64,000 bases of DNA from Escherichia coli. GTDB lineage: Bacteria > Pseudomonadota > Gammaproteobacteria > Enterobacterales > Enterobacteriaceae. Position 1 is the stretch's first letter. Each line of letters opens with the position of its first letter. The stretch lies in the NCBI RefSeq assembly GCF_044324785.1, contig NZ_CP172127.1; one strand, given 5' to 3'. The notes under the pieces are model-generated. The model was given only the letters and a program-made list of their open reading frames with translations. It ran no database searches and was not told the origin of the DNA. The position numbers and the translations under genes are program-made. Positions 57,837 to 57,871 of this stretch are shown piece by piece.

Positions 57837-57871
57837 CATATTTTGCTTAATCCCGAATTAAGCAAAATATG
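57837..57871. promoter_or_regulatory. Perfect 15-bp inverted repeat with 5-bp spacer, 45 bp upstream of the ratA start; candidate operator or RNA hairpin
   Basis: catattttgcttaat cccga attaagcaaaatatg, seen directly in the sequence. Confidence 0.4.

Follow-up and report, generated by a model that had tools for sequence, protein, structure and literature searches.

The island of adhesin genes considered here lies in a window of 64,000 nucleotides (nt) of Escherichia coli DNA, to which all positions refer and whose part from 57500 to 58200 is 100% identical to the corresponding region of E. coli strain N3; the gene names would have suggested Salmonella instead. The gene order at this locus reads der, yfgJ (encoding a zinc-ribbon protein), sinH, sinI, a RatA-like gene and, on the opposite strand, xseA. 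The island is inserted between yfgJ and xseA and contains solely sinH, sinI and the RatA-like gene, all three on the same strand and separated by spacers of 54 nt (sinH-sinI) and 120 nt (sinI-ratA). Within the latter spacer a perfect 15-bp inverted repeat is present (57837-57871, + strand) which represents, in E. coli, an undescribed RNA stem-loop found in front of ratA in six or more genera of gut bacteria. This stem-loop, referred to as hairpin 2 (H2) in the following, probably controls how much RatA adhesin is made.

The first gene of the unit, sinH (54586-56763, +), encodes an intimin-like inverse autotransporter according to the RefSeq annotation of N3 and the list of open reading frames (ORFs). 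It is followed by sinI (56818-57795, +; TAA stop codon at 57793-57795), whose 325-aa product is annotated by RefSeq as “SinI family autotransporter-associated protein”. The RatA-like gene (57916-64000, +), coding for a giant adhesin (“adhesion domain-containing protein” in RefSeq) and comprising 8,040 nt in N3, is cut by the end of the window. Its ATG at 57916 (position 6417 of locus L001) is taken from the RefSeq coding sequence of N3, and inspection of the sequence places its Shine-Dalgarno motif GGTGGAG at 57901-57907. Related loci feature a CAGGTGGAT-type Shine-Dalgarno motif 6 to 9 nt 5' of the ATG, and PF05688 and PF05689 repeats are present in homologous loci. Co-transcription of sinH and sinI is reported in a review (PMC12525524) which cites Shea et al. 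2022. A scan of the sinI-ratA spacer for sigma-70-like promoters, carried out with four alleles, yielded none. Since the three genes share one strand, since they are separated by no more than 54 and 120 nt, since no promoter is seen and since sinH and sinI are reportedly co-transcribed, we infer a shared sinH-sinI-ratA transcript which reaches into ratA.

The two hairpins of the sinI-ratA spacer

H2 consists of the 5' arm CATATTTTGCTTAAT (57837-57851, +), the loop CCCGA (57852-57856, +) and the 3' arm ATTAAGCAAAATATG (57857-57871, +). The initial annotation had described it as a perfect 15-bp dyad with a 5-nt centre and as the longest perfect inverted repeat outside coding sequence in the window. 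Both statements hold, as a repeat search likewise finds the arms to be complementary at 15 of 15 positions (100%). A longer repeat, 22 nt at 95% complementarity including a perfect stretch of 19 bp, exists inside the coding region of sinH (54614-54661). When the 64-kb window was simulated 200 times with a first-order Markov model, the longest perfect stem (loop of 3 to 10 nt) had a mean length of 9.4 and a maximum of 13; as a stem of 15 was reached in none of the 200 simulated windows, the dyad is not a chance event.

The RNA from 57831 to 57877 folds with -18.6 kcal/mol (z = -8.1) and the whole spacer (57790-57925) with -48.9 kcal/mol (z = -6.3). Both RNAalifold and folds of single sequences extend the H2 stem to about 19 bp in total (57833-57875, +), the flanks T-CC-G (57833-57836) and T-T-G-A (57872-57875) contributing U-A, C-G and G·U pairs on either side of a C×U mismatch which is conserved. 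We would like to note that the window allele is unusual in that it forms a perfect palindrome, so that both strands fold equally. The 3' end of the dyad is located 44 nt 5' of the ATG at 57916, in agreement with the position in front of ratA given earlier. As likewise reported before, no U-tract follows the dyad, the 3' flank of which reads GTTGATGCG. The H2 stem consists of A/T to 80% and was not flagged by the consensus terminator scan. With an AT-rich stem followed by GUUGA and no U-tract, H2 is not an intrinsic terminator.

Between sinI and H2 the spacer folds into a GC-rich hairpin (hairpin 1, T1; 57805-57835, +) of the composition AGCAGCATTCCC-GCAA-GGGAATGCTGTT, the TTTCC at 57831-57835 overlapping its last stem pairs. 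In the fold the arms extend from 57805 to 57816 and from 57821 to 57832, enclosing the GCAA loop; the GC-rich hairpin previously assigned to 57809-57828 is the core of this structure. T1 starts 9 nt 3' of the sinI stop codon in the window and 7 to 12 nt across loci, conforms to the consensus RCCAYTCCC-N4-GGGARTGGY in 26 loci and is usually followed by 3 to 6 U and by CC. Its folding energy amounts to -15 to -29 kcal/mol across loci, with most values between -20 and -27 kcal/mol. By its GC-rich stem and a U-tract of 3 to 6 U, T1 displays the features of a terminator weakly, and the consensus terminator scan of the window did not call it since the U-tract is too short. For this very reason we infer, rather than assign, its role: T1 has the anatomy of a moderate intrinsic terminator and, as the terminator-like element of sinI, would lead to partial termination.

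The U run and the CC behind T1 double as the 5' side of the basal H2 pairs, the two helices being merely 1 to 2 nt apart in most loci, and together T1 and H2 fill about 70 of the 120 nt of the spacer. In Escherichia sp. E1V33 (L010; L094 in a metagenome) an insert of about 175 nt resembling repetitive extragenic palindromic (REP) sequences or bacterial interspersed mosaic elements (BIME) follows the T1 stem (4360-4545 of L010), and at the same place Escherichia sp. MOD1 (L027/L035) carries about 55 nt of inserted sequence. In these insert-bearing loci H2 retains both the (T)TCCGC prefix and its position in front of ratA. The distance from GTTGA to the ratA ATG amounts to 29 to 44 nt in all variants read, with only the Shine-Dalgarno motif being conserved in between. 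Insertions hence split T1 from H2 but never H2 from ratA, from which it follows that H2 belongs with ratA. As a separate observation, the junction behind the T1 stem is a hotspot of insertion (L010, L027/L035).

Conservation and covariation of H2

Loci for comparison were obtained from species-representative genomes, from assemblies encoding specific SinI proteins and from metagenome contigs scanned with the core pattern of H2. SinI homologues of 41 to 97% identity are found in Escherichia, Salmonella, Citrobacter, Pseudocitrobacter, Kluyvera, Superficieibacter and Leminorella. In the first six of these genera H2 is present between sinI and ratA; altogether, it was found in about 30 loci fetched via SinI and in about 47 metagenome contigs. 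The spacer with both hairpins occurs in several allele classes of E. coli, in E. albertii, E. whittamii and further Escherichia spp., in Salmonella enterica, its subspecies salamae and S. bongori, in several Citrobacter species and in Pseudocitrobacter, Kluyvera and Superficieibacter. The initial annotation had named absence of the dyad from orthologous loci as a refutation and had proposed to inspect the region upstream of ratA homologues. The opposite is observed, as almost all orthologous loci examined possess the hairpin.

This conservation spans considerable divergence of the encoded proteins since, outside the allele class of the window, SinI and RatA are 41 to 68% and 44 to 77% identical to the window proteins, respectively. 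Within E. coli the sinI-ratA junction is present in 1,691 of 5,426 complete genomes, the allele classes being at least 95%, about 84% and about 69% identical to the window; strain CFT073 possesses the window allele at 98% identity. The 69% class, represented by strain ST-131, retains the stem, CATAT/ATATG being replaced by CCTGT/ACGGG and the AT/AT at the top by GCG/CGT. Across 18 divergent loci, aligned over 590 nt, invariant columns form their longest runs at TTTGCTTA and TAAGCAAA, plus TT.C.G before and TTGA after H2, while the coding flanks in this alignment show ordinary third-position decay only. In the window these two halves of the invariant core occupy 57842-57849 and 57859-57866 (both +), and in the alignment of 26 sequences described below they correspond to columns 15-22 and 49-56, which are identical in 24 to 26 of the 26. 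The flanks of H2, TTTTCCGC and GTTGA, are nearly invariant as well. E. albertii exhibits a 26-nt insertion in the loop and a double change from G-C to A-U within the core.

A second type of locus, with a diverged hairpin ATACTTTGCTTAATCAACCATTAAGCAAAGTAT, was noticed in a derivative of E. coli O127:H6 E2348/69 (L038; NZ_LT903847.1, 1999861-2004900). There, sinH and sinI are followed by a short adhesion-domain gene (760 aa), and the zinc-ribbon gene is situated downstream rather than upstream.

The pairing of H2 was analysed in an alignment of 26 distinct sequences produced by MAFFT and not fitted to any structure, in which the 19-pair stem corresponds to 494 cells. Standard pairs are present in 94.7% of these cells, compared to 31 to 50% when the 3' partner is slid by 1 to 3 columns. 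Double-sided changes are observed in 7 pairs (39 cells), and the covariation score of 0.303 contrasts with 0.175 in shuffles, none of 500 shuffles scoring as high. From the MAFFT alignment RNAalifold independently derives the same stem, including the flank pairs 6-65, 7-64 and 9-62. Pairing is, moreover, not symmetric with respect to the strands. G·U or U·G pairs account for 69 of the 494 cells; the opposite strand would have A·C at these places and, by arithmetic, pair in about 81% of the cells compared to 94.7%. The folding energies calculated for both strands agree with this: the RNA of the + strand is more stable than its counterpart in 29 of 34 distinct variants, the means being -20.9 and -16.2 kcal/mol.

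From base to top, the stem begins with two to three pairs, U-A, (U-A) and C-G. Above them lies the conserved C×U mismatch, which is replaced by an A-U pair where C8 is A and pairs with U63; this is the case in 3 aligned variants (A3) and in the E2348/69-type locus. The adjoining G9·U62 pair is present in 25 of the 26 sequences. It is succeeded by five pairs which covary freely, every single position having turned over, by the eight invariant pairs of the core, UUUGCUUA/UAAGCAAA, and by two to three variable pairs, two of which alternate between A-U and U-A and between G·U and C-G. The apical loop comprises 3 to 5 nt of free sequence. The half-sites of the core are separated by 9 nt in 19 variants, by 8 nt in 4, by 11 nt in 2 and by 26 nt in one. 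With 18 to 19 predicted pairs and one conserved C×U mismatch, the stem lies at the lower limit of the length of RNase III substrates.

The pattern of substitutions shows that H2 is under purifying selection for pairing and that core and flanks are, in addition, under selection for sequence. Judged from the aligned sequences, H2 is a hairpin of the sense-strand RNA and neither a symmetric DNA operator, because of the compensatory changes, the G·U pairs and the greater stability of the + strand, nor a terminator.

Further searches and neighbouring features

A covariance model built from the alignment detects this site only, both in the window and in 29 further loci (about 340 kb). With a 53-nt query one locus per E. 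coli genome is obtained, the two “places” reported corresponding to the two strands of the palindrome. No copy of the hairpin was found in the viral contigs searched, and within metagenomes the complete motif, TTCCGC prefix included, is confined to sites beside sinI and ratA; the other 18 matches to the pattern are AT-rich palindromes lacking this prefix. A repeated or mobile element (REP/BIME, enterobacterial repetitive intergenic consensus sequences or miniature inverted-repeat transposable elements) is ruled out, H2 being single-copy in the window and per E. coli genome. The spacer between ratA and ratB of Salmonella contains no similar hairpin, hence no second copy precedes ratB. Rfam 15 provides no match to H2 at gathering thresholds, and at E values up to 10 only spurious matches to microRNA precursors and CRISPR repeats of at most 18 bits. 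A literature search revealed no paper mentioning the hairpin or the spacer, although its coverage is incomplete and absence from the literature is therefore not proven.

Several candidate features in or around H2 were considered and discarded. For a ratA promoter in or next to the dyad, candidate hexamers turned out to be unconserved by eye, and their spacing would shift with the length of the loop. An ORF of 16 codons (57825-57875, +) starts with an ATG in the 3' arm of T1 and has its TGA stop within the conserved GTTGA; as the varying length of the T run (3 to 6 T) shifts the frame and most alleles contain an early TAG or TAA, it does not encode a conserved peptide. UUCCGC could serve as an anti-Shine-Dalgarno sequence by pairing with GGUGGA, yet the Shine-Dalgarno motif deviates in several clades (GGGCAGG, GGGGAG) while UUCCGC is constant. 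A GGA characteristic of CsrA sites is present in the loop of some alleles only and not in that of the window. A sequence resembling boxA of rrn operons, CGTTTAACAAC at 57889-57899, is unconserved in other alleles, and the sole match to the RfaH ops element, GGCGGTAG, lies inside ratA at 60844 and is of chance frequency. Long-range pairing with UUAAGCAAA of sinH codons 24-27 cannot explain the invariance elsewhere because this motif is confined to Escherichia-type alleles. DsrA, which contains UUGCUUAAGCAA, offers nothing but a lead, the match of 8 nt being not significant.

The strongest hairpin of the window is formed by codons 10-25 of sinH (54614-54661, +), the part coding for the signal peptide together with its cleavage site. 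It has 22-nt arms with one mismatch (95%), a 4-nt loop and an RNA folding energy of -37.7 kcal/mol. Compensatory changes are seen in Escherichia-type alleles (ACGCTT.../...AAGCGT in E. albertii), and the hairpin is weaker in Pseudocitrobacter and some Citrobacter. It may be an element of translation or of mRNA stability. The 9-mer TTAAGCAAA of the 3' arm of H2 has four sites in the window, compared to 0.7 expected, among them one just behind the sinH hairpin (54659-54667) and one inside ratA (60029-60037). Retention of the sinH copy is restricted to Escherichia-type alleles (noted in L006, L010, L011, L022 and L033); there, the sinH hairpin is followed by UUAAGCAAA(A/G), which matches 9 to 10 nt of the 3' arm of H2 and 13 nt in L022. 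The shared 9-mer could be a coincidence of V-K-Q codons or a common site of recognition or pairing.

Upstream of the island, the AT-rich yfgJ-sinH spacer of about 210 nt (54377-54585) includes an inverted repeat of 24 nt with imperfect arms (54386-54438, complementarity of 79%) and is likely the promoter of the island and its region of control by H-NS and LeuO. A 19-nt inverted repeat of 84% complementarity between the der stop and the yfgJ start (54103-54144, +) looks like a terminator or attenuator hairpin. Elsewhere in the window, Rfam matches above gathering score comprise ryfA (35881-36185, -), IS128 RNA (36317-36495, -), the iscRS stability element (28420-28529, +) and sroE (49296-49387, +), and REP-like inverted repeats of the GCCGGATAAGGCGT / ACGCCGCATCCGGC type are present at 16430-16479 and 34992-35054.

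Proposed function of H2 and comparison with known systems

For this conserved, single-copy and ratA-linked hairpin of the sense strand we favour a function as a cis-regulatory stem-loop of the ratA leader which is recognised by a putative sequence-specific factor and sets the output of RatA, a reading which we consider, on balance, rather probable. In such a scheme T1 would stop part of the transcripts and read-through RNA alone would contain H2, whose stem of about 19 bp would form on the sense transcript 29 to 44 nt 5' of the ratA start codon. H2 cannot modulate T1 since it is transcribed after T1; its role is consequently to be sought downstream, in what becomes of the ratA portion of the RNA. 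There, H2 would act in cis on ratA at the post-transcriptional level and serve to mark, protect or process the ratA cistron at its 5' edge. A sequence-specific factor such as an RNA-binding protein or a ribonuclease would contact the invariant double-stranded core and the non-canonical basal step, and recognition by this factor would set the amount of RatA relative to SinH and SinI. A specific contact of this kind, rather than a generic barrier, is to be expected because it is the double-stranded core and the non-canonical step which are invariant. H2 thereby presumably possesses a trans-acting partner and presumably affects the stability or the translation of the ratA mRNA. More tentatively, H2 might be the RNA operator of a putative dedicated factor, or an element modifying RNA polymerase, which gates RatA in sinH islands across Enterobacteriaceae. 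If this doubtful, further-reaching proposal were true, H2 would represent a new class of cis-regulatory RNA tied to two-partner loci of inverse autotransporters.

Some observations weigh against regulation by a recognised ratA-leader stem-loop. Citrobacter sp. R56 (L017) encodes RatA and is devoid of the hairpin, and Leminorella (L021), likewise RatA-encoding, carries at the same place a different hairpin, UUUUGAAAA.../...UUUUUCAAAG, which has only the outer UUUUG...CAAAG in common with H2. In the fold H2 does not touch the Shine-Dalgarno motif, and a direct translational switch is thus not evident. Lastly, the aligned sequences share ancestry, for which reason the counts of cells overstate the number of independent events, a caveat which touches neither the slid controls nor the tally of distinct pair types.

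Stabilising intercistronic hairpins are common in adhesin and fimbrial operons (pap, fan, fim; also the REP sequence of malE-malF), and H2 might be purely structural in the same manner, devoid of any partner and blocking Rho or RNase E on the read-through RNA, or exonucleases, its invariance being an accident of ancestry. The stable and conserved stem, the variable loop and the share of the spacer taken up by the two hairpins (about 70 of 120 nt) are in line with this view. However, eight consecutive base pairs and two flanking motifs have remained unchanged across genera, while the five pairs below the core have turned over everywhere, and a generic hairpin would be expected to drift via the G·U pathways taken by the lower stem; we therefore deem a purely structural hairpin unlikely. 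The processing or stabilising hairpin proposed in the initial annotation nonetheless comes close to the ratA-leader stem-loop favoured here and is compatible with the data, except that the invariant 8-bp core and the flanks exceed what a generic stability hairpin would entail. Of the other functions suggested there, that of an attenuator adjusting the sinI to ratA ratio would suit T1, which looks attenuator-like and possesses a short U-tract, and not the dyad, which lacks a U-tract and is transcribed after T1. In a further reading RNase III would cut the stem of about 19 to 20 bp with its internal mismatch and thereby uncouple ratA from the sinH-sinI mRNA. Substrates of this enzyme are double-stranded over about two helical turns, for the most part without interruption, and 19 pairs with a conserved C×U mismatch lie at the lower edge of this range; the intercistronic position is suitable. 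Yet the stem of the window is AT-rich and merely about 19 bp long. As RNase III, as far as we know, has little positive sequence specificity, the invariant core would be left unexplained, and we regard cleavage by this enzyme as quite improbable.

The dimeric regulator which had been considered initially, for instance LeuO or another protein of the LysR type, would bind the half-sites TTTGCTTA/TAAGCAAA on duplex DNA, thereby controlling ratA or the entire island. Half-sites identical in 24 to 26 of 26 sequences and a 9-nt spacer in 19 of 26 variants speak for an operator, and GCTTA-N9-TAAGC, as obtained with this spacer, agrees with T-N11-A, the loose pattern of LysR-type sites. In addition, LeuO activates iatB, the E. 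coli orthologue of sinH (PMC6714894), and its core site is characterised as a 19-bp palindrome with 7-bp half-sites and a 5-bp spacer (PMC6698644). Complementarity is, however, maintained by compensatory changes beyond the half-sites, at positions which are not conserved themselves, with G·U pairs being employed (G9·U62 in 25 of 26), which count as mismatches in the opposite strand and in the symmetry of a DNA duplex, and the + strand folding better in 29 of 34 variants. In 7 variants the spacer deviates to 8, 11 or 26 nt, as DNA the invariant flanks TTCCGC and GTTGA lack symmetry, and the scan of four alleles revealed no promoter-like site nearby on which an operator could act. A DNA operator appears poorly probable on these grounds. 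Still less credit is given to a cis-acting RNA of the type of put (phage HK022) or EAR which would modify RNA polymerase for the transcription of the 8-kb ratA (plus ratB and shdA in Salmonella). Its location at the start of a very long gene, the conservation of primary sequence within the stem and the tandem arrangement with T1 at a distance of 1 to 2 nt in most loci would suit such an element. Against it, no similarity to an Rfam family is detected, T1 and H2 are separable by inserts of 55 to 175 nt, no evidence points to terminators inside ratA, and the idea is speculative; we consider it very improbable.

H2 exhibits a striking conservation at a locus relevant to colonisation by Salmonella and by ExPEC (extraintestinal pathogenic E. 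coli) as well as to SinH vaccines. SinH is being pursued as an antigen for vaccines against ExPEC, and the island of sinH, sinI and ratA aids colonisation of urinary tract and gut (PMC9937491, PMC12525524, PMC12928451). RatA-like proteins have been proposed to be secreted substrates of the SinH barrel (PMC4943183); if this is true, the ratio of translocator to substrate should matter. Being more conserved than either flanking gene, the core of H2 offers a mutable handle on the control of expression and a bait for the regulator, and H2 could enter catalogues of RNA families as an enterobacterial RNA motif.

By its features we place H2 among the cis-acting stem-loops of mRNA, the element itself being undescribed in the literature found; it matches none of the feature sets which define a terminator, a repeated element, an Rfam family or a symmetric operator. 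Closest in setting are the intercistronic stem-loops of fimbrial and adhesin clusters (the papB-papA region, those behind fanC and fimA) and the malE-malF REP, which likewise are located in an untranslated spacer of a same-strand gene cluster and, according to established knowledge, are placed such that they could set the ratio of upstream to downstream product post-transcriptionally. For these hairpins we know of no invariant double-stranded core across genera. The ratA locus differs from them by two adjacent hairpins with different roles, the second of which travels with the downstream gene, and H2 is single-copy whereas REP elements are multi-copy. Intrinsic terminators and attenuators are resembled by T1, with its GC-rich stem, short U run and conservation, but not by the AT-rich H2 with its subsequent GUUGA, which moreover lies downstream of T1 and hence is not its anti-terminator. 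With LysR-type operators (T-N11-A; the LeuO core site) H2 shares inverted half-sites mostly 9 nt apart in a cluster whose first gene responds to LeuO, and it departs from them in that pairs outside the half-sites covary, G·U pairs occur, the strands are asymmetric and the spacer varies. In the conservation of both sequence and pairing H2 is comparable to boxB of lambda N, the operator of the MS2 coat protein, the RAT of BglG/LicT and the RNase III sites of the rpsO-pnp leader and of T7 R1.1. There is no similarity in sequence to any of these, and in H2 it is the stem which is conserved while the loop is free. Its conserved C×U mismatch beside a G·U pair is the pattern expected of a specific contact between RNA and protein.

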